Shown here: piece by piece, positions 1 to 16,277 of the stretch
Layout of the letters: each line of letters begins with the position of its first letter
How positions within the stretch are numbered: the stretch's first letter is position 1
IMG/VR virus record: IMGVR_UViG_3300021226_000189
Source of the DNA: a virus
Direction: 5' to 3' (one strand)
Length of the DNA stretch: 64,000 bases
Position numbers and translations under genes: made by a program
Notes under the pieces: model-generated
What the model was told of the DNA's origin: nothing
The model's input: only the letters and a program-made list of their open reading frames with translations
The model's database searches: none

Positions 1-92
1 CGACAGAAACGAGTGCATCTGCAAGGAAGAATTGGCGGGAAGTTCCACAGTGGTAGCCCGATTCAATTAAAAAACTAGACTAAACTCAGGAC

Positions 93-302
93 ATGCCGAA
101 CACAATGAAATTCCAATCGTTCCTACTCACTACTGACCATGTCAATGGCATGGTGAAAGCATTGAAGCAAGCAGGTTTGCGCGTAGAGCGTAATTCTGGA
201 ACAGTCAAAGCTTTCCACAATGACAAGAGAATCTTTGCAGCCTTGCAGAAAGGTCGCAATCAGCCTTGGATTGTTCGCCATGTCGTGGGATTGTTCAATT
301 AA
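93..302 (+). CDS. Early small hypothetical protein (69 aa)
   Basis: ATG 6 nt after TAAACT; stop is the TAA of the next repeat. Confidence 0.8.
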   Translation: MPNTMKFQSFLLTTDHVNGMVKALKQAGLRVERNSGTVKAFHNDKRIFAALQKGRNQPWIVRHVVGLFN

Positions 303-324
303 AAAACTAGACTAAACTCAGGAC

Positions 325-555
325 ATGACCTTACAAATTAAAACATCTTACGTCTCTCCCACGAATACTAAAGGCGCGAAAATCAAAGCCACATTCAATG
401 GCAAGACCGTTTCGGTTCCTTTCAATTACGCTCTGAACTCAGAAGAACGTCATGAAGAAGCAGCGATTGCTTTTGCTGACAAGCATGGATTGAGCATGAA
501 GCTTGGTGCAATCCGCTCTCATGACAAGGGTTATTTTTTCAAAATTGTTTCATGA
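325..555 (+). CDS. Early small hypothetical protein (76 aa)
   Basis: ATG 6 nt after TAAACT; PTNTKGAKIKA motif typical of small phage early proteins. Confidence 0.8.
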   Translation: MTLQIKTSYVSPTNTKGAKIKATFNGKTVSVPFNYALNSEERHEEAAIAFADKHGLSMKLGAIRSHDKGYFFKIVS

Positions 556-570
556 TGGTATGGGAAAAGT

Positions 571-600
571 CCCCTCTCCTTGGTGGTGCTTGGAGAGGGG
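571..600 (+). terminator. Stem-loop upstream of cassette promoter
   Basis: CCCCTCTCC/GGAGAGGGG 9-bp stem; no U-tract. Confidence 0.6.
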
Positions 601-634
601 CAATCCAATTAAAAAACTAGAATAAACTTAGGAC

Positions 635-793
635 ATGCAACATCTTGTATTTATTATCCATGAAAAATTCGTCGCCTATCGGATGGGCAATCAGTATGGT
701 ACGCATCCAATCGGCGATGACACGGTGCAAAGCGTCATCGACTATCTCATGAAAGTCATCAATTTCAAGACAGTAGAAATCATTCACCATTAA
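635..793 (+). CDS. Early small hypothetical protein (52 aa, MQHLVFIIHEKF...), not in ORF track
   Basis: Translated by hand; ATG 6 nt after TAAACT; ends at the TAA of the next repeat. Confidence 0.75.
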   Translation: MQHLVFIIHEKFVAYRMGNQYGTHPIGDDTVQSVIDYLMKVINFKTVEIIHH

Positions 794-815
794 AAAACTA
801 GCGTAAGATTTCAAC

Positions 816-918
816 AGAGCGTCATCTAAGTGCATAGGATTCTGGAATTGGGAGATATTCGTCTAAATTAGGATACCCGACATCAGAGAATGAGAATTTG
901 CAACTCTCCGCTCTACCA
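816..918 (+). ncRNA. tRNA-shaped RNA with extended anticodon arm and 3' ACCA
   Basis: Starts where the ATG sits in other cassettes. AGAGCG(816-821)/CGCTCT(909-914) stem plus ACCA, with D-like, anticodon-like and T-like arms in cloverleaf order. Confidence 0.6.
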
Positions 919-944
919 TTAAAAAACTAGACTAAACTTAAAAC

Positions 945-1133
945 ATGACCAGACGATACACTAACCAACTGTTGGAACTCATTGATAACGGAGTGCTAAA
1001 TGCCGATGACGTTCTTCGCTCATGCCTGAATTACATGTCAGAAGCAGAAGTTGAAGACATGGCAATCAGTGAGGAATACATTGAGGAAGAAGAAGAAGAA
1101 GAAGAGGAGGAGGAGGAAGAAGAAGAGCAATAA
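945..1133 (+). CDS. Early small acidic protein with poly-Glu tail (62 aa)
   Basis: ATG 6 nt after TAAACT; GAA/GAG run; stop in next repeat. Confidence 0.8.
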   Translation: MTRRYTNQLLELIDNGVLNADDVLRSCLNYMSEAEVEDMAISEEYIEEEEEEEEEEEEEEEQ

Positions 1134-1155
1134 AAAACTAGAACAAAATACCGAC

Positions 1156-1263
1156 ATGCTTTTGATTTGTTTATTTTTTCTCACTCTAATTGTTATGGGT
1201 ACGCGCTCCCATCTTCTCGGTGCCATCATCGTTATGGCATGGACTGCATACTTCATGTGTTAA
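1156..1263 (+). CDS. Early small hydrophobic peptide (35 aa, MLLICLFFLTLIV...)
   Basis: ATG 6 nt after CAAAAT; this is the 3' half of track ORF 1051-1263. Confidence 0.65.
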   Translation: MLLICLFFLTLIVMGTRSHLLGAIIVMAWTAYFMC

Positions 1264-1288
1264 AAAACTAGAATAAAATTGGTTCATC

Positions 1289-1474
1289 ATGAAAACGACA
1301 CTACTTATCCTTGCCGCAATCCTTGCAATCCTTGCACCTTTCGGAGCTATCTTTGCAACCTTTCTATGTGAGGGGGAAATCGATTATTTTCAATTCATCT
1401 CTGGAATTGTAGCAATCATCGGTTCTCTCTGCTCTCTGATTCTGATTGTAGAAATTCAGAAGACAGTGAAATAA
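1289..1474 (+). CDS. Early small membrane protein, two TM segments (61 aa)
   Basis: Two hydrophobic stretches; follows repeat. Confidence 0.75.
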   Translation: MKTTLLILAAILAILAPFGAIFATFLCEGEIDYFQFISGIVAIIGSLCSLILIVEIQKTVK

Positions 1475-1496
1475 AAAACTAGCCTAAGATATTGAC

Positions 1497-1742
1497 ATGA
1501 CGAAAACCAAATTTCACAATCAAGATGGTACACTCACTGGTTACTCCTTTGGATGCGGATACGTGGAGCTTTACGGCGGCAAGGGGGAAGCAAGAGCAAC
1601 TCTTTCTCGTGAGCCTAACGACTTTCATGTCAAAGGATTTGACGAAAACGGGAAACATTTTTGGGAAGTCTTTAACCTTGTCAAAGATGCTCGCAAATTT
1701 GCTCGCAAAATGGCGGGGAAACTCACCAACGGTCCCCGATAA
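1497..1742 (+). CDS. Early small hypothetical protein (81 aa)
   Basis: ATG 6 nt after TAAGAT; stop in next repeat. Confidence 0.8.
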   Translation: MTKTKFHNQDGTLTGYSFGCGYVELYGGKGEARATLSREPNDFHVKGFDENGKHFWEVFNLVKDARKFARKMAGKLTNGPR

Positions 1743-1763
1743 AAACTAGCGTAAGATTGAGCC

Positions 1764-1838
1764 ATGCCTGACATTACTACCCTATCCGATAGCGACCTGC
1801 AAGACCTGATCGACTTCATGCAAGGTGTGACAAAATGA
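1764..1838 (+). CDS. Early peptide (24 aa, MPDITTLSDSDLQDLIDFMQGVTK)
   Basis: ATG 6 nt after TAAGAT; translated by hand. Confidence 0.55.
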   Translation: MPDITTLSDSDLQDLIDFMQGVTK

Positions 1839-1882
1839 CGCACCTTGCACCATTAAAAAACTAGCCTAAGATTATTACCGCA

Positions 1883-2056
1883 ATGAAATATTCCATCAAC
1901 TCCACTGTAGTCGTCTCCCCTATAAAAGGTGACGTTTTCTCTTACGAATTTCAAGGAACTGTCATCGACTTCATCAAAGAATCGAATACTTACATCGTTC
2001 AAGATCAAGACGATGACGTTTTTGAAGTCTATGAAGATCAAATCACCGCCTTGTAA
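1883..2056 (+). CDS. Early small hypothetical protein (57 aa, MKYSINSTVVV...)
   Basis: Translated by hand; ATG 10 nt after TAAGAT; stop in next repeat. Confidence 0.7.
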   Translation: MKYSINSTVVVSPIKGDVFSYEFQGTVIDFIKESNTYIVQDQDDDVFEVYEDQITAL

Positions 2057-2077
2057 AAACTAGCCTAAGATATTGAC

Positions 2078-2233
2078 ATGCCTAGATATTCTATCGAAAT
2101 CACGTATCCCTCTGGAATGATCGCTTTCATGTCCTACAATGGGAGAACAGAATGGTGCTATTCACAAGCACGTCATCACATGAAGACATGGGTGCATATC
2201 CATGGAATCAAACCACGCCTTGTAAAAAACTAG
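2078..2233 (+). CDS. Early small hypothetical protein (51 aa, MPRYSIEITYP...)
   Basis: ATG 6 nt after TAAGAT; ends on the TAG inside the next repeat. Confidence 0.7.
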   Translation: MPRYSIEITYPSGMIAFMSYNGRTEWCYSQARHHMKTWVHIHGIKPRLVKN

Positions 2234-2263
2234 AGTAAACTGATACCGTAACCAATACACACC

Positions 2264-2506
2264 ATGTCCAACAAAACTATCATCACCAAATTCGTAAACG
2301 GCGCAACCACTGGCAAAAATTCCACTCGCTCGCTTTTCATTGAGGGGGATACGATTTACTCGTATGGGTATCACTTCCCGCTTGCTCGTCGCAATGCTGA
2401 CGGCACTTTCTGGGTAAATCCTGACAAGTACAGTGTCACCACTAGCAAGCAGCAAGGCATGGTGCGTTGCGCCATTGCTCACTCTAACGGAAAATTTTCG
2501 GCGTAG
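2264..2506 (+). CDS. Early small hypothetical protein (80 aa)
   Basis: Follows repeat with a short leader; YSYGYHFPLA and YSVTTSKQQ motifs. Confidence 0.8.
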   Translation: MSNKTIITKFVNGATTGKNSTRSLFIEGDTIYSYGYHFPLARRNADGTFWVNPDKYSVTTSKQQGMVRCAIAHSNGKFSA

Positions 2507-2517
2507 TCATGGCAAGT

Positions 2518-2547
2518 CCCCCTCTCACTGTGGTAAGTGAGAGGGGG
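2518..2547 (+). terminator. Stem-loop upstream of cassette promoter (second copy)
   Basis: CCCCCTCTCAC/GTGAGAGGGGG 11-bp stem; same AAGT and CAATCC flanks as 571-600. Confidence 0.6.
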
Positions 2548-2581
2548 CAATCCTATTAAAAAACTAGCTTAAACTTGGGAC

Positions 2582-2857
2582 ATGACCGACTTGCAACAAG
2601 CTACTTACTGGTTAAAGACTCATTACAAGTTCCGCCATGATGGTTGGACTAAAAGACAATGCGCTTTGATGATAAGCCATATGCGCCCAGGTTTTTTAGA
2701 CTTCATGATGAAGGTAAATAAGCCTGGCGACTTCGACATAAAAGACGGTTTTTTCCACTTCGGACAAATTCAAACCAGAAAAGACTTGGTGAAGTTTTGG
2801 ATTCGTCAACTAAGACAGTTGAAAAATTCACCACAAAAGACAACAAAACGGAATTAA
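2582..2857 (+). CDS. Early small hypothetical protein (91 aa)
   Basis: ATG 6 nt after TAAACT; stop in next repeat. Confidence 0.8.
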   Translation: MTDLQQATYWLKTHYKFRHDGWTKRQCALMISHMRPGFLDFMMKVNKPGDFDIKDGFFHFGQIQTRKDLVKFWIRQLRQLKNSPQKTTKRN

Positions 2858-2882
2858 AAAACTAGCTTAAACTGATTGCACC

Positions 2883-3023
2883 ATGAAGCCATACGCTAAC
2901 ATCCGACTCACTCAACGCGAGCGTCAAATTCTCGCAACTCGTATCCGCCTGAATCGTAAGCACAACAAGCAACGATTCACCCGTAAAGATGCGCACGACC
3001 TTGCTTTCATCCTTTTCGCGTAA
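2883..3023 (+). CDS. Early small basic protein (46 aa, MKPYANIRLTQRER...)
   Basis: Translated by hand; ATG 9 nt after TAAACT. Confidence 0.7.
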   Translation: MKPYANIRLTQRERQILATRIRLNRKHNKQRFTRKDAHDLAFILFA

Positions 3024-4763: not shown

Positions 4764-4784
4764 CATCTAACATCTAACATCTAA
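4757..4784 (+). repeat. (CATCTAA)x4 tandem heptamer
   Basis: Read directly; related run at 4428-4446. Confidence 0.9.
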
Positions 4785-4821
4785 CGCCCTCGTGTCCTAA
4801 CGGATGCGGGGGCGTTTTTTT
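4785..4821 (+). terminator. Intrinsic terminator closing the early array
   Basis: 13-bp stem (with G-U pairs), TAAC loop, T7 tail. Confidence 0.85.
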
Positions 4822-10266: not shown

Positions 10267-10341
10267 GCGTCTATGATGTAATCGTTAGCATCCGATCCTT
10301 CCAAGTTCGGTGTGTGGGTTAGAGTCCCACTGGACGCTCCA
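10267..10341 (+). tRNA. tRNA-Gly(TCC)
   Basis: GCGTCTA/TGGACGC acceptor, CTTCCAA loop, CCA. Confidence 0.9.
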
Positions 10342-10350
10342 TTTCATCAG

Positions 10351-10458
10351 ATGAAATTTAAAAAATTACGAAAGAAATTTAAAACGGATTACTCAACTTG
10401 CAAATGGTTGAAATGGTTTAAATGGAAAAAAACTTGTAGAGATAAAGATTATGATTAG
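10351..10458 (+). CDS. Lys/Trp-rich peptide (35 aa)
   Basis: Translated by hand: MKFKKLRKKFKTDYSTCKWLKWFKWKKTCRDKDYD; end overlaps the next start. Confidence 0.45.
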   Translation: MKFKKLRKKFKTDYSTCKWLKWFKWKKTCRDKDYD

Positions 10459-10768
10459 AATTAAAATAATAGCGGACGCTTCATCATTCGGTGCTAGAAT
10501 CGCACTATTCAAAGATGATGATAAAGTAACATCTTTAAATTATGAACTTTTAGATGATCTTACGTTCCTATCTTCAAAGGATACACTATTCAAAGGACCA
10601 GAATTATCATTGAAAGATGCAGTGTTTGAATTGGCTATAATGTTGAAGAACGATAGTCCAGAAAAATTGAATGATGTTTCAATTGATGAAATTGTGGAAG
10701 CGTTTGAAGCTTTAATTGAAAAATATAAAATCAAAAGATGGGATGGGGGATACCTACCCTTTCAATAA
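10451..10768 (+). CDS. Hypothetical protein (105 aa)
   Basis: ORF track. Confidence 0.7.
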   Translation: MIRIKIIADASSFGARIALFKDDDKVTSLNYELLDDLTFLSSKDTLFKGPELSLKDAVFELAIMLKNDSPEKLNDVSIDEIVEAFEALIEKYKIKRWDGGYLPFQ

Positions 10769-10773
10769 TACAT

Positions 10774-11010
10774 ATGAATAAAGTAGAAATCAAAATGGAG
10801 AAAATTGAGATCAAATCTCACCCCCGTAAATTAAAAGGGGATTGGAAAATTGAAATTGATCCTGAACCAATCTGTTTGTATTATCATCCACCGATATGGG
10901 AAAGAGTATGGGATAAGATTCTGAATTTATTTGGTAAAAGAAAAAATCATATTTATGATGAAATCACAAAAGAATTTGAAAATAAAAAAAAATTGAAGAA
11001 AAAGACTTGA
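10774..11010 (+). CDS. Hypothetical protein (78 aa)
   Basis: In-frame ATG after the upstream stop. Confidence 0.6.
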   Translation: MNKVEIKMEKIEIKSHPRKLKGDWKIEIDPEPICLYYHPPIWERVWDKILNLFGKRKNHIYDEITKEFENKKKLKKKT

Positions 11011-11045
11011 AAAAGTTACGAGGAATGCTAAATACTAATAACAAC

Positions 11046-11108
11046 ATGAAATACGAACAATATAATCAAAACAAGCCAGCGACACCGAATGGGTGGCGGC
11101 GTGAATGA
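11046..11108 (+). CDS. Putative leader peptide MKYEQYNQNKPATPNGWRRE
   Basis: Lies between TTGAAA-N16-TAAATA promoter and terminator hairpin. Confidence 0.55.
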   Translation: MKYEQYNQNKPATPNGWRRE

Positions 11109-11140
11109 TTGTGTTTTAGTAAGACATATTGGATTTCGCG

Positions 11141-11166
11141 CCTCATCTGAAAAGATGGGGTTTTTT
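11141..11166 (+). terminator. Intrinsic terminator upstream of tRNA cluster (attenuator-like)
   Basis: CCTCATCT-GAAA-AGATGGGG-TTTTTT. Confidence 0.8.
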
Positions 11167-11245
11167 ATTTTAGAGGTGAACGAAGCGACCTGAACTGCTA
11201 GAGAGTGGTGAAAGACTAATAGAGAATGTTGAAATATATTTTTAT

Positions 11246-11320
11246 GGGATCATAATTCAATGGTAGAATAACTCCCTTTTAAGGAGTAAGCTGAAGGTTC
11301 GAGTCCTTCTGATCCCACCA
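11246..11320 (+). tRNA. tRNA-Lys(TTT)
   Basis: Cloverleaf, CTTTTAA loop, CCA. Confidence 0.95.
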
Positions 11321-11322
11321 AT

Positions 11323-11398
11323 TCCCAAGTAGCTCAGTTGGTAGAGCAAGCGGCTGTTAACCGCTGGGTCGTAGGTTCGAACCCTACCTTGGGAGCCA
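11323..11398 (+). tRNA. tRNA-Asn(GTT)
   Basis: Cloverleaf, CTGTTAA loop, CCA. Confidence 0.95.
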
Positions 11399-11403
11399 TT
11401 AAT

Positions 11404-11479
11404 GCTTCTATCGTCTAAAGGTCAGGACAAAGGATTTTCAATCCTTAGATCGCGGGTTCAAGTCCCCGTAGAAGTACCA
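11404..11479 (+). tRNA. tRNA-Glu(TTC)
   Basis: Cloverleaf, TTTTCAA loop, CCA. Confidence 0.9.
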
Positions 11480-11482
11480 TAT

Positions 11483-11556
11483 GCCTCCATAGTTCAATGG
11501 TAGAACTCCCGATTTGTAATCGGGTGATGCAGATTCGAATTCTGCTGGAGGCTCCA
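11483..11556 (+). tRNA. tRNA-Thr(TGT)
   Basis: Cloverleaf, TTTGTAA loop, CCA. Confidence 0.95.
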
Positions 11557-11565
11557 TTTTTTAAT

Positions 11566-11652
11566 GCGTTAGCGGCGAAGTAGGAGAGTCGCGGCGGTCT
11601 GTAAAACCGCAGCCTTCGGGCTTAGTAGATTCGAATTCTACCTAACGCACCA
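11566..11652 (+). tRNA. tRNA-Tyr(GTA)
   Basis: Cloverleaf with long variable arm, CTGTAAA loop, CCA. Confidence 0.95.
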
Positions 11653-11662
11653 TTTTTAACAT

Positions 11663-11740
11663 CTAGTCGTGGTGGAGAGGTCTAACACACCTGCTTTGGA
11701 AGCAGGAACAACGTTCGTTCGAATCGAACCGACTAGACCA
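11663..11740 (+). tRNA. tRNA-Pro(TGG)
   Basis: CTAGTCG/CGACTAG acceptor, TTTGGAA loop, ACCA. Confidence 0.9.
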
Positions 11741-11750
11741 TTTTTTCAAC

Positions 11751-11827
11751 GGGTCATTAGTTCAGTTGGTAGAACGTCTGCCTTGCAAGCAGAATGTCGT
11801 GGGTTCGAGTCCCACATGTATCCACCA
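11751..11827 (+). tRNA. tRNA-Ala(TGC)
   Basis: CTTGCAA loop, G3-U70, one bulged base in acceptor stem, CCA. Confidence 0.9.
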
Positions 11828-11836
11828 TTTTTTAAT

Positions 11837-11912
11837 TGGGCGTTGGTGTAATCGGCTAGCACCGCAGATTTTGATTCTGTTAGTAGGGGTTCGAGTCCTC
11901 TACGCCCTACCA
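11837..11912 (+). tRNA. tRNA-Gln(TTG)
   Basis: TTTTGAT loop, 1-72 mismatch, CCA. Confidence 0.9.
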
Positions 11913-12676: not shown

Positions 12677-14197
12677 ATGAAAAATTTCCATAAATTGTAT
12701 CACAAACTCATGCGTGAGTATGTGGAAGATTTTGACCAGAAATGGGATAAAGCTGTTTCCGAATCCGAAGAACTTCAAGTTGCTTTGGATTTGATGAAGA
12801 ATATCAAAGCGAAATTGAAAGGTGAAATCTATATCGTCGGTGGTGTTCCTCGTGACTTGCTCATGGGTAACGCAATTGATGATGTGGATTTGGCTACCAA
12901 TATTCCCGTGGAACAATTGAAGAAACATTTTGAATTGAGAAATATTTCCAAGAACGATTCCCAACCAGTATATGCTATCCTCTGGAAAGGATATGTTTAT
13001 GATTTGGCAAAATTCAGAACTGATTCTGGCGACATTGGTAGACAAGCCAATGTCTCAACCGAGACTGATTCATTCCAAGCGGATACGGAACGTAGAGACC
13101 TAACAATCAATTCTTTCGGATTGGATGAGAATGGTAAGATCGTAGATTATCAAGGTGGTCTGGAGGATTTGAAAAACAAAATCGTCCGTGCTGTAGGAGA
13201 TGCCAAGAAGAGATTCATGGAAGATGCTACAAGGATTCTTCGTGTTTTCCGATTCGCCGCCAAGATGGATTTCGAAATCGAGGAAAATACTAAGAAAGCG
13301 GCTATCGAATTAAAGCATTTGCTTCAAGATCCAAAAGCGATTTCCAAAGAAAGTATTTCAAAAGAATTTTATAAGTCTGCCAAGACTGGTAGAACGCTTG
13401 CAAATTTCTTGAAGAAATTACAAGATACAAAAATCCTACATGATATTCTTCCTGAATTCACGCAGATGGAAGGTTTTGATCATGATCCACAACATCACCC
13501 TGAAGGAGAATCTCAAGTATTAGGACACATCTATGAGTGTCTGAACGCTTCTCCTTACAAAGACCCTGTGATTAATTTAGCTGTATTGTTCCATGACTTT
13601 GGAAAAGCTACGACTAGAGGTAAAAAAGACAATGGATTCAGTAGTTATCATGGTCATGAAGCTGCTGGTGTTCCTATTGTTGAAGGGATTTTCGAGAGAC
13701 TAAGATTCAATGAACTGTCTCAGCAAGACAAAAAAAATATCTTAGCAGCGGTGGATAAGCACATGCTCATCCACAATCTCGATAAATTAAATATTAAAAC
13801 ACTCACAAAATTGATTCAAAACCCTGCATGGGAAACAATCAAAGCAGTTGGTTATTGTGATGAAGCATCAAGAGGTTCTGGTCTCTTTAATGAACAAGAA
13901 TTTTGGGATAAAGTTAAAAGAGCCGAAGAAAAAGTGTCTAAGATTGGAGGCTCAGAGGATGAAACTAGAAAACGTCTGAAACAATATTTCAGCGGAAATA
14001 AATTGATGGAATGGTTCCCGATTCTTATTAAGGATAAATCAAAGTTCAGGGATATCACATCCGCATTACAAGAATATACTCTAGAAGAATTGAATGCTGG
14101 TAGAGAACCAAAAGAAGACGAAATGAAAACGATTGCCGCAGGTATTCTGAAAAACAATCAGTTTAATGAGTGGTTTGATTATTTCAAAAGAAATTAA
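12677..14197 (+). CDS. cca: CCA-adding tRNA nucleotidyltransferase with HD domain
   Basis: VGGVPRDLL, DDVDLAT, RRDLTINS, EDATRILRVFRF, HHPEG, LFHDFGK. Confidence 0.95.
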   Translation: MKNFHKLYHKLMREYVEDFDQKWDKAVSESEELQVALDLMKNIKAKLKGEIYIVGGVPRDLLMGNAIDDVDLATNIPVEQLKKHFELRNISKNDSQPVYAILWKGYVYDLAKFRTDSGDIGRQANVSTETDSFQADTERRDLTINSFGLDENGKIVDYQGGLEDLKNKIVRAVGDAKKRFMEDATRILRVFRFAAKMDFEIEENTKKAAIELKHLLQDPKAISKESISKEFYKSAKTGRTLANFLKKLQDTKILHDILPEFTQMEGFDHDPQHHPEGESQVLGHIYECLNASPYKDPVINLAVLFHDFGKATTRGKKDNGFSSYHGHEAAGVPIVEGIFERLRFNELSQQDKKNILAAVDKHMLIHNLDKLNIKTLTKLIQNPAWETIKAVGYCDEASRGSGLFNEQEFWDKVKRAEEKVSKIGGSEDETRKRLKQYFSGNKLMEWFPILIKDKSKFRDITSALQEYTLEELNAGREPKEDEMKTIAAGILKNNQFNEWFDYFKRN

Positions 14198-15132
14198 TCT
14201 TTATGCCACTTTTCCATTTTGGAATAATATTATTTAAGTTCGTGTAACAATGGATCTTTAGATGTGATGCGATGTTTTTTCCCTTCATCGTCCAAATAAA
14301 TTACAGGATCTACCACAAAGATATTCCCATTCTCATCCATTAAGACATTTTCATCGTGCATATCTTCTACACGAATTCCTTTTTCTCGATTGATGTAATC
14401 GTGATCTGTTCCTTGAATTTTCGAATAACCTAATTTATTCATCAGTCGCTCAACATCTACGGGAGATGCTCCTTTGGTGGCTCTAACATGAGGTTGTGAA
14501 ATAACTGGTTGTAATTCCCCGTCATTGATTACAAACCCCTCTAAAGCATATGGAGCTTCAGGAAAAGATGCGTTGTGTAGCGCAAGTCTATAGAAGAATT
14601 CTAAATATGTGGTGTGATATGACAAATTGTTCCTCTTAAACCATCTTTGGGACTCCTCATCGAAATAAACGTTGTTTTCCGCTTCTCCCTTTTTACCTTG
14701 TTCATACCATTTACGGTCGAATTCGTCATTGTCCATAATCAGACCAACTTGTTCAGCCCAACGGGTCAACCATTTCTCTTCTACTGGTTTAACCCGCTTT
14801 GCCATTAGATTCCTACCAATGACTTTTTTCTTGTATTCTTTTTCCGTTGTGAACTCTGGGATCGAATCATCTCGTATTGATTCATGGCTTCTGTAAGCGA
14901 CAGTGGTGGCAGCTTTGAGTTTTTTTCCACCTCTTCCAGTATAGCCTTGTTCCGCTCCAGATGGGATTCTGTCAGGAGTGTATCGTGTTTGTTTTTCATA
15001 AATTATTTTGATAAAATTTTCAAAATTGATTAAATTTTTCTGTGGGATGGTTCTCATCATATTTATTTATCCATTCTTCCGCATCTATACGATGTTAATC
15101 TTTATGCCACTTTTCCATTTTGGAATAATATT
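14194..15132. repeat. 38-bp perfect direct repeat flanking the kinase gene
   Basis: TTAATCTTTATGCCACTTTTCCATTTTGGAATAATATT at 14194-14231 and 15095-15132. Confidence 0.95.
14230..15060 (-). CDS. Ser/Thr kinase-like protein (Kinase-PolyVal-like)
   Basis: GEAENNVY, WFKRN, LHNASFPE, PVISQP, DMHDENVL, VVDPVI. Confidence 0.75.
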   Translation of the reverse strand: MMRTIPQKNLINFENFIKIIYEKQTRYTPDRIPSGAEQGYTGRGGKKLKAATTVAYRSHESIRDDSIPEFTTEKEYKKKVIGRNLMAKRVKPVEEKWLTRWAEQVGLIMDNDEFDRKWYEQGKKGEAENNVYFDEESQRWFKRNNLSYHTTYLEFFYRLALHNASFPEAPYALEGFVINDGELQPVISQPHVRATKGASPVDVERLMNKLGYSKIQGTDHDYINREKGIRVEDMHDENVLMDENGNIFVVDPVIYLDDEGKKHRITSKDPLLHELK

Positions 15133-15319
15133 GTGGATCTTCTTCAACATGTTGTTTAGCAATCGTTTTCGATAATTTCTTACCTAAAGTAGTCCTTCTT
15201 TTAGAAGGATTGACATGTTCTTGTTCTACTTTCTCACCTTTGGAAACTTCTGTTTTTGGAAGATTTTTCTTCTTAACTTTCTTGAAGTATTCATCAAAGA
15301 AATCTTGGAACTTTTTCAT
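15095..15319 (-). CDS. DUF5661-like small protein
   Basis: GEKVEQEH...IAKQHVEEDPQYYSKM. Confidence 0.6.
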   Translation of the reverse strand: MKKFQDFFDEYFKKVKKKNLPKTEVSKGEKVEQEHVNPSKRRTTLGKKLSKTIAKQHVEEDPQYYSKMEKWHKD

Positions 15320-15990
15320 TTTAAATTATCGACGATTTTTTGAATTTCTTTCAATAAGATATGTTGACTTCTCTTACCATTTATGGTTTTGGGTTCTTCG
15401 ACTTCTTCGAAGGCGAATTCACGCCCTTTAACTTTTGTTAAGAATGGTCCAGAATGTTGTCCGAATATACCTTTACCAACTACTTGTTTGACACCTAAAC
15501 CAGGGTAAGCACCTTCGCTACCTGAAGTACCCCATAAATAAGCACCTTCTCCACCTGCTGGTATGATTAACACTGAGTCTTGATTAAACGCTTTACCCAA
15601 TTTATATAAATCTTTAGCTAATTGACCACCATCATCACCCACAATTTTATCATTAACAACGAAGAAAGAACGTTCATTAACGTCTTTCGGGGTTTTATTA
15701 TAATATTCACCGCCAGCTCTTCTAGCTAAAATTTCTTCTTTTTTATCATCATCTTCAAAATTTTCAATAAATGTTCCCAACACGGAAGTTATCGAATAAC
15801 CTTTTGATTGTAGATATGCAAGTATTTTCTTATTATTCAATAGATTTTGTTTGTAAGGGATATCACCTCTAAAAGCCGTGATAATACCACCTGAGTGATT
15901 TTTTATTTTATTCAAAACCCTACTCAGACTACTTTCATTCAATAAATCTGAATAAATTTCCCCGATCTGATTTATATCTGTACTTTTCAT
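15316..15990 (-). CDS. Conserved large-phage hypothetical protein
   Basis: ESSLSRV...ITAFR...LGKAFNQDSVL; ATG at 15990. Confidence 0.8.
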   Translation of the reverse strand: MKSTDINQIGEIYSDLLNESSLSRVLNKIKNHSGGIITAFRGDIPYKQNLLNNKKILAYLQSKGYSITSVLGTFIENFEDDDKKEEILARRAGGEYYNKTPKDVNERSFFVVNDKIVGDDGGQLAKDLYKLGKAFNQDSVLIIPAGGEGAYLWGTSGSEGAYPGLGVKQVVGKGIFGQHSGPFLTKVKGREFAFEEVEEPKTINGKRSQHILLKEIQKIVDNLK

Positions 15991-16277
15991 TGCCAATTTT
16001 CCTCCATTTTTTTCAAATTATTTATCAACATTTCTAGGTTTCTAGAATGGAAATTACAATCGATTTTTGTAATCGCGACATGCTGATTTTTATCAGCATC
16101 AAAGCATAACGAATAATTAAATTTAGAAACGCCTTCCATATGTTCAACCATCAATATAAATGTTTCAAACATACCAGAAGGTGCCACATCAAATTTATCA
16201 TCTGTTTTTACAAACTCCACACCATCAAGCTTTGATGGGCAATTTTTTTCATATTTTTTTGGATAAATTACTATCAT
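15987..16277 (-). CDS. Hypothetical protein (96 aa)
   Basis: ORF, overlapping neighbours by 4 nt. Confidence 0.7.
   Translation of the reverse strand: MIVIYPKKYEKNCPSKLDGVEFVKTDDKFDVAPSGMFETFILMVEHMEGVSKFNYSLCFDADKNQHVAITKIDCNFHSRNLEMLINNLKKMEENWQ

Follow-up and report, generated by a model that had tools for sequence, protein, structure and literature searches.

Phage early arrays are read almost entirely as collections of small proteins, and a unit that carries the shared early promoter and no start codon raises the question of what, if anything, it encodes. We examined such a unit, cassette 4, in a 64,000-nt stretch of viral DNA (IMG/VR record IMGVR_UViG_3300021226_000189; hereafter the window). 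An earlier note, made from the letters alone, had proposed that positions 816-918 of this stretch, which we call the element, specify a tRNA-shaped RNA with a giant anticodon arm and an ACCA end.

The phage and its early cassette array

The source of the window is an uncultured T4-like phage. Pfam searches identified a T4 portal protein (Gp20), the Gp23 capsid protein, the gp15 tail-sheath stabiliser and a ribonucleotide reductase, as well as a class II CCA-adding enzyme with an HD domain at window 12677-14197 (+). The capsid protein is at best ~32% identical to that of any cultured phage, and window positions 1-3000 gave no nucleotide match in the INPHARED phage database. The closest IMG/VR relatives by capsid are 88-89% identical and use the same promoter/junction repeat.

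Roughly 21 one-gene cassettes lie between window positions 70 and 4763, each opened by the repeat AAAAACTAG-NN-TAARMT, which has 24 matches in the window against 0.14 expected. Array cassettes place their ATG 6 or 9 nt past the repeat hexamer, and in 11 window cassettes other than cassette 4 the distance is exactly 6 nt. The same repeat family reaches 68 copies in the complete 207-kb genome of a relative (G001), and scanning viral contigs with the promoter word alone returned single chance matches only. A consensus scan of the array found one strong + strand terminator-like site, at 4783-4816, and no stem-loops at the cassette junctions; with a single terminator at this place, nested read-through transcripts from some 20 promoters are to be expected. 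The hairpin at 4783-4816 has 15 pairs followed by T5, and it closes the whole 4.7-kb cassette array.

Further along the window, ARAGORN finds nine tRNAs at 10267-11912. Of four complete relatives, three also encode the CCA-adding enzyme, at 62-90% identity to the window copy; it is a core gene of this phage group. Two other genes stand out next to the tRNA cluster: a polyvalent-protein-type kinase (PF18762, window 14230-15060, -) and an S-adenosylmethionine lyase-like protein (PF23780, window 15316-15996, -), which is grouped with the kinase and the CCA-adding enzyme. Together the three look like a counter-defence and tRNA-maintenance block.

Cassette 4 carries a full promoter and no apparent protein

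Cassette 4 occupies 793-921. As the earlier note had described, its promoter is complete and AGAGCG stands at 816 where the ATG would be; the spacer between them is TTCAAC. Its parts are as follows.

793-809 (+): promoter/junction repeat AAAAACTAGCGTAAGAT, that is AAAAACTAG-CG-TAAGAT, located by pattern scan
810-815 (+): 6-nt spacer TTCAAC between the hexamer and the predicted transcription start, unchanged in every homolog
816-918 (+): predicted ~103-nt non-coding RNA (the element), based on the missing start ATG, stops in all frames and homologs
816-821 (+): terminal acceptor-like stem, 5′ strand, partner 909-914; six Watson-Crick pairs, invariant in all copies
824-840 (+): first hairpin, with an invariant 4-bp stem (824-827/837-840) and a loop of 8-9 nt; weakly defined
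841-887 (+): long arm, with outer helix 841-845/883-887, middle helix 849-852/876-879 and an apical hairpin
within 841-887 (+): apical hairpin, formed by 856-860/871-875 in the window and by 861-864/871-874 in the consensus fold
888-891 (+): 4-nt unpaired linker, variable (G888C, A890G)
892-908 (+): third hairpin, whose 4-bp stem (892-895/905-908) closes the 9-nt loop AUUUGCAAC; the same in every copy and lacking a T-loop consensus
909-914 (+): terminal stem, 3′ strand, from the sequence
915-918 (+): tail A-CC-A, which reads A-CC-T in the other three haplotypes; the next junction repeat follows at once
919-938 (+): junction/promoter repeat of cassette 5 (ORF 945-1133)

The sequence of cassette 4 supports its being non-coding. 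Stops interrupt all six frames of the element in every haplotype, and the haplotypes differ by single-base indels. A search by tblastx across the window and the arrays of relatives found no translated similarity between the element and any other array cassette. The idea of a pseudogene or a coding ancestor was dropped on the same ground, as tblastx links the element to no other cassette in the arrays compared. Covariance model R1, built for the element, has a single match in the window, which is the element itself.

The fold and its rarity among cassettes

All six helices listed in the earlier note do pair (816-821/909-914, 824-827/837-840, 841-845/883-887, 848-852/876-880, 856-860/871-875 and 892-895/905-908), and the minimum-energy fold from RNAfold has the same layout except for a slightly different first hairpin. 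The fold energy is ordinary, no better than that of shuffled sequence, with a z against dinucleotide shuffles of -0.01 for the window and of 0.08 and -0.21 for two other haplotypes. The minimum-energy fold holds 2-6% of the ensemble, of which the terminal stem is the only well-defined part (pair probability 0.82-1.0). Pair probabilities of the inner helices run from 0.14 to 0.93 depending on the haplotype, those of the first and third hairpins being 0.14-0.26 and 0.52-0.81, respectively.

The layout itself is rare. We compared 126 cassettes from the window and relatives, each running from its start-equivalent base up to where the following repeat begins. A 6-bp Watson-Crick terminal stem at the start-equivalent position was present in this element alone (window and L240 copies); the next-best stem, of 5 bp, occurs once. 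A terminal stem closing exactly three arms was the minimum-energy fold in 7 of 2000 shuffles (0.35%), and none of 139 other cassettes folded in this way, also when their length was allowed to vary between 95 and 111 nt. A chance origin of the terminal-stem-closed fold with its ACC tail is unlikely. The CCA alone is weak evidence, since ACC[A/T] also stands before the junction at a few percent of protein cassettes, for example at 785-789 and 1850-1854.

We also noticed that both 9-nt loops contain the self-complementary UGCA (831-834 and 898-901), which would permit a 4-bp loop-loop contact; this falls to 3 bp in haplotypes that lack A834 and could be chance. Complementarity of the element to the rest of the window does not exceed 11 nt, which is the chance level, and the idea of an antisense target in the window was rejected for this reason. 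A role as a CsrA sponge was unconvincing, with four GGA motifs against an estimated ~1.5 expected and most of them within stems.

Homologs, haplotypes and the pairing

The element was found in 16 other contigs: two from IMG/VR, five JGI metagenome contigs, seven further assemblies and two Logan runs. Homologs were located by word scans followed by BLAST and the covariance model, and the seven assemblies were reached through neighbouring proteins. Metagenomes with the element include some from lakes and aquaculture ponds. Pattern scans of viral contigs for the element, including three words from its interior, returned only L209 and L211, and a scan of viral contigs with the hexamer and both ends fixed and the interior free gave no new copies. 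Five of the 22 matches in the metagenome pattern scan were real copies; genome-contig scans gave only two chance matches, which the covariance model rejected. No distant homolog or paralog was detected by BLAST and model R1 in 20-38 related IMG/VR records, four complete genomes among them, and the element is absent from the four complete relatives (BLAST and covariance model) and from one Logan strain.

All copies reduce to four haplotypes with nine variable sites, and the promoter hexamer and spacer are identical throughout. Two of the sites lie in the first loop (G830A and loss of A834), an A is inserted after 840 in one haplotype, and the others are T848C, T874C, G879A, G888C, A890G and A918T. 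The earlier note had made conservation of its pairings in homologs a test of the structure, and the outcome is divided: the terminal stem is invariant, but pairs 848-880 (through T848C) and 857-874 (through T874C) are broken in three of the four haplotypes. Nor did the compensatory changes it looked for appear, as there are none in the four haplotypes and nine variable sites. A variant from RNAalifold drops 848-880, shifts the apical hairpin to 861-864/871-874 and keeps all 27 of its pairs. Seven of the nine variable sites are unpaired in this consensus fold, and the two paired ones are compatible and one-sided, with G879A turning U-G into U-A and T874C turning G-U into G-C. The revised fold was chosen after seeing the variation, so the agreement is compatible with a structure and is not a test of one. 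We set aside one other helix, 837-843/853-860, which the extra A makes perfect in haplotype H2, because its probability falls to ~0 in the remaining haplotypes and the structure is therefore not common to them.

A predicted small early RNA

We tentatively read cassette 4 as the gene for a small early non-coding RNA of ~100 nt, predicted to combine an acceptor-like end with a functional body that is not that of a tRNA, and we hold this with somewhat less than even confidence. Transcription would start at A816 from the cassette's own promoter, judging by the ATG spacing in the other cassettes, where A816 corresponds to the A of the ATG in leaderless-type neighbours. Polymerases reading through from upstream cassettes would also transcribe the element, as is expected when a consensus scan finds no + strand terminator before 4783-4816. 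Bases 816-821 pair with 909-914 and leave an A-CC-A/U tail, an end that may share the geometry of a tRNA acceptor. In the absence of a terminator before 4783, the 3′ end would have to be made by processing, and host trimming of tRNA 3′ ends together with the phage CCA-adding enzyme (12677-14197) could both define and protect it. Co-occurrence gave no signal for the enzyme, which is also encoded in relatives that lack the element, and its presence there means that the distribution lends no specific support to this role.

The body of this predicted RNA, a long interrupted arm between two short hairpins, would be the working part and would most likely bind a host protein or RNA during early take-over or counter-defence. 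The RNA would be an accessory, exchangeable module, carried in one phage subclade and absent from others. A bolder version, to which we give only a small chance, is a class of immediate-early phage RNAs, not described before, that copies just the acceptor end of tRNA. Such an RNA would begin right at its mature 5′ end, would be trimmed and CCA-tagged by the phage enzyme, and would trap a host factor with its non-tRNA body, for instance a tRNA-directed defence nuclease or an enzyme of RNA processing. Taken with the unrelated, T-arm-bearing RNA that G001 has at the corresponding array position (described below), it would point to a family of exchangeable 'RNA morons' in take-over arrays of T4-like phages.

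Conservation in a mosaic array

Cassette 4 could instead be an inert passenger, a decayed or never-functional filler between promoter repeats that was recently spread by recombination and folds as it does by accident. We consider this possible but rather unlikely. Between the window lineage and the L240/L241 group the element is 95% identical, compared with 74-84% for seven shared coding cassettes (46-70% at third codon positions), 90-93% for an eighth, the 24-codon cassette 8, and 80-88% for true tRNA stretches. L240 and L241 have identical elements while its neighbours are 97% and 82% identical there, and in a Logan contig the element shows 0 changes over 129 bp against 7 and 6 changes in the flanking cassettes. 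The element is therefore more conserved than its immediate neighbours in three separate comparisons, which argues against a passenger. In L227 the order is reversed, with three changes in 107 nt (97.2%) against ~1% in neighbours that are 98.8-99.1% identical, as a passenger would allow.

These arrays are mosaics, with cassette identities of 78-100% between close relatives and a cassette order that is shuffled between lineages, and in T4-type phages such units are known to be shuffled by recombination at repeated early promoters (PMC2839356). In a mosaic, high identity may mean either selection or a recent hop of the cassette, and an identity above that of true tRNAs leans towards recent transfer. 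The 95% identity of the element would fit constraint or recent cassette exchange equally. Two Logan contigs compared over window 600-1150 give examples of such changes: in one, cassette 3 is joined straight to the cassette-5 promoter and the element is missing, and in another ~153 extra bases, one more unit, lie between the element and cassette 5. Strain-level gain and loss occur at the repeats.

A fold energy z of ~0, the lack of covariation, the exchange of PeSL-type units already documented (PMC2839356) and the four complete relatives and one strain without the element are all what a passenger would produce. On the other side, the terminal stem and the closed three-arm fold are rare by chance, promoter and spacer are perfect in every copy, tblastx found no coding ancestor, and the variable sites avoid or preserve the consensus pairs.

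The element might also act in cis, as a folded spacer in read-through transcripts (for cleavage, exonuclease block or insulation) or as a DNA site for a protein. Transcripts from upstream should cross it, given that the sole strong + strand terminator lies at 4783-4816; the stem brackets the cassette exactly, and near-total invariance that includes the loops would suit a recognition site. We nevertheless find a cis role quite unlikely. The cassette comes with a complete promoter, for which a mere spacer would have no use, and its neighbouring cassettes differ between lineages, so it serves no one particular neighbour. Inspection of the element by eye also found no internal repeats and no palindrome of the kind typical of an operator.

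Similarity to tRNA is confined to the terminus

The earlier note's central proposal was a tRNA mimic. In its full form this would be an L-shaped RNA that passes for a tRNA with synthetases, with the ribosome or with host defences that cleave or sense tRNAs. Some features recommend it: the four-way junction, the arm order and linker lengths close to those of a cloverleaf, the A-CC(A/U) end, the base inserted in one haplotype exactly at the equivalent of position 26, and a phage equipped with a tRNA set, a CCA-adding enzyme and genes of counter-defence type (the SAM lyase and polyvalent-protein kinase). The searches for a tRNA were silent on the + strand. ARAGORN at default settings called none at the element, though it found nine elsewhere in the window, and none on the + strand at 60-80% thresholds with introns allowed in three haplotypes. 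Its relaxed calls on the complementary strand (a tRNA-Glu with an intron and an mt-tRNA-Cys) were inconsistent and not common to the haplotypes, and were discarded. The Rfam tRNA model (RF00005) likewise matched neither at its gathering score nor, over 301 nt, at E<=10, and all 4227 Rfam families searched around the element at E<=10 gave only two chance snoRNA matches on the opposite strand.

The details of the fold likewise depart from a tRNA. The acceptor-like stem has 6 bp where a tRNA has 7, the seventh position being U822 opposite C908, and acceptor and T-like arm would stack to 10 bp and not 12. The third, T-like arm has 4 bp and the 9-nt loop AUUUGCAAC without UUCR/A, against a canonical 5 bp and 7-nt loop. 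The D-like loop reads AAGUGCAUA, or AAAUGCUA in other haplotypes, and lacks GG. The 5-bp outer helix 841-845/883-887 encloses 37 nt with further helices, and no 7-nt loop with U33 is present; the absence of an anticodon loop and of TTCG had been noted before and is borne out. What survives of the mimic is thus the stem-closed terminus with its ACC tail, and nothing beyond the terminus is recognised as tRNA by ARAGORN on the + strand or by Rfam at E<=10. The CCA end also stands only in part: the window reads A-CCA at 915-918, the only haplotype to do so, and the final A is T in the other three, to which the majority of copies belong. A CCT ending does not speak against an end of tRNA type, since a true tRNA-Met of G001 also has ACC followed by T.

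Two further readings of the layout were considered. The suggestion of an intron-like precursor finds no bulge-helix-bulge geometry and no anticodon loop, and on inspection the 3x3 internal loop beside a 4-bp helix is not the bulge-helix-bulge of an archaeal-type intron. The element does have a layout like that of a phage guide-RNA decoy (vsgRNA, bioRxiv 10.64898/2026.06.01.729453), with a 5′ single strand, a long interrupted hairpin and a 3′ hairpin; the likeness is superficial, no tracrRNA family in Rfam matched at E<=10, and the idea was set aside.

RNA genes as cassettes in relatives

The arrays of relatives hold true tRNAs as cassettes. In G001, tRNA-Met (L118:14644-14718) and tRNA-Arg (L118:14739-14815) directly follow the hexamer, L240 has a tRNA-Met at 785-857, 11 nt past the hexamer, and G002 a tRNA-Ile at L120:6868-6942, 5 nt past it. 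These tRNAs end in ACC(A) immediately before the next repeat, and the tRNA-Met of G001 reads ...GCGC-A-CC and then TTTAAAAACTAG. A tRNA that starts at the hexamer cannot be whole when transcribed from its own promoter, and must therefore derive from read-through transcripts.

G001 also carries an ATG-less cassette of ~168 nt at L118:17658-17835 (IMG/VR 3300042544_001590; G001:62657-62834), a candidate new tRNA-like phage RNA. It folds at -61.5 kcal/mol with a z of -3.4 and has a canonical T arm, GAGGG-UUCGAAA-CCUUC, beside an acceptor-like closing stem. ARAGORN did not call it, Rfam gave no match at E<=10, and no copies were found in 11 other relatives. Its place in the array is that of the element, immediately upstream of the cassette-5 homolog. 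Neither BLAST nor the covariance model matched the element to this RNA or to the tRNA cassettes. The slot before cassette 5 thus appears to hold a structured RNA in two lineages, and the two predicted RNAs are unrelated. That the arrays of relatives carry tRNAs and a structured RNA makes an RNA gene at the element's spot plausible.

True tRNA cassettes in the same arrays, one of them also ending in ACC+T, count in favour of a tRNA mimic as well, but a canonical T arm is present in T4 rnaC and in the G001 RNA and missing from the element, and in view of this and of the features above we regard a true mimic as very doubtful. Finally, a micro-protein gene is extremely improbable: the only ORF (ATG at 890, 10 codons, peptide MRICNSPLYH, 74-nt leader) stops on the junction-repeat TAA, as do 11 other array ORFs, and its codons 1-9 are invariant, but the stop is lost in three of four haplotypes, which alters and lengthens the C-terminus, two haplotypes have GTG in place of the ATG, a ribosome-binding context is lacking, a leader of this kind is found in none of the other cassettes, and the sequence upstream of the ATG is conserved as strongly as the ORF itself.

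Relation to known phage RNAs and cassettes

The element belongs to no described RNA family. Other non-tRNA RNAs with an acceptor-like end are familiar from eukaryotic systems, where the mascRNA of MALAT1 and the tRNA-like 3′ structures of plant viruses are recognised by tRNA-processing and CCA-adding enzymes. Those RNAs keep a recognisable T arm or a pseudoknotted acceptor; for the element a similar end is predicted, which such enzymes might recognise.

In kind, the predicted RNA resembles the small stable RNAs of phages with tRNA-like features, here apparently carried as a PeSL-like exchangeable cassette. RNAC (species 1) and RNAD (species 2) of T4 are tRNA-associated RNAs of ~120-140 nt with no established role (PMC3014915, PMC9697503); both map within the tRNA cluster and count as late RNAs (PMC9697503). 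The element would likewise be a small non-coding RNA of a T4-type phage. The differences are considerable. T4 rnaC has a canonical T arm, CCGGG-UUCGAAU-CCCGG (CCGGGUUCGAAUCCCGG), and a z of -4.6, whereas the element has no T arm and a z of ~0. The genes rnaC and rnaD abut tRNA-Arg, whereas the element lies at 816-918 in the early array and the tRNAs of the window at 10267-11912. The element has its own promoter and no sequence in common with RNAC or RNAD. It shares its arrangement with the RNA cassettes of G001, G002 and L240, which have the same repeat before them, the next repeat directly behind and ACC(A) or ACC+T ends; those, unlike the element, are recognised tRNAs or have a canonical T arm with a z of -3.4.

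PeSL (promoter-early stem-loop) cassettes of T4-type phages consist of a promoter and a terminator stem-loop with protein cargo (Arbiol et al. 2010, PMC2839356), and the early promoters repeated between their small accessory genes are the means by which units are gained, lost and reordered (PMC2839356). The array studied here shares the repeated early promoter that bounds exchangeable units, with 24 repeats, shifts in order and presence or absence of units. It differs in that the promoters have no terminator stem-loop each and in that the cargo of this cassette is non-coding.

One unit of this array, and others in the arrays of relatives, appear to be RNA genes with the same plug-in promoter as the proteins. 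If so, non-coding RNAs would be traded between phages as modules, in the manner of take-over and counter-defence proteins, and the element would be a compact candidate (~100 nt with its own promoter) for mimicry of the tRNA end as a means of stabilising or aiming small RNAs. A second, independent case could also help with T4 RNAC and RNAD, whose roles have been unknown for decades. Should the element prove only a passenger, it would be a cautionary example of mosaic exchange making junk look highly conserved.

Two smaller observations concern other parts of the window. The inner 7 nt of the third loop of the element, UUUGCAA (897-903), match the anticodon loop of a phage tRNA-Ala, CUUGCAA (11783-11789), at six of seven positions, which could be chance. 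The second most conserved cassette (1741-1855) has a 24-codon ORF, MPDITTLSDSDLQDLIDFMQGVTK, at window 1764-1838 that is 90-93% identical in nucleotides between lineages, with third positions 83% identical, followed by an untranslated tail that ends in GCACCA before the junction. ORFs with a similar MPD... start recur in the arrays of G001 and G002, and the ORF may be a widely kept micro-protein or something more.
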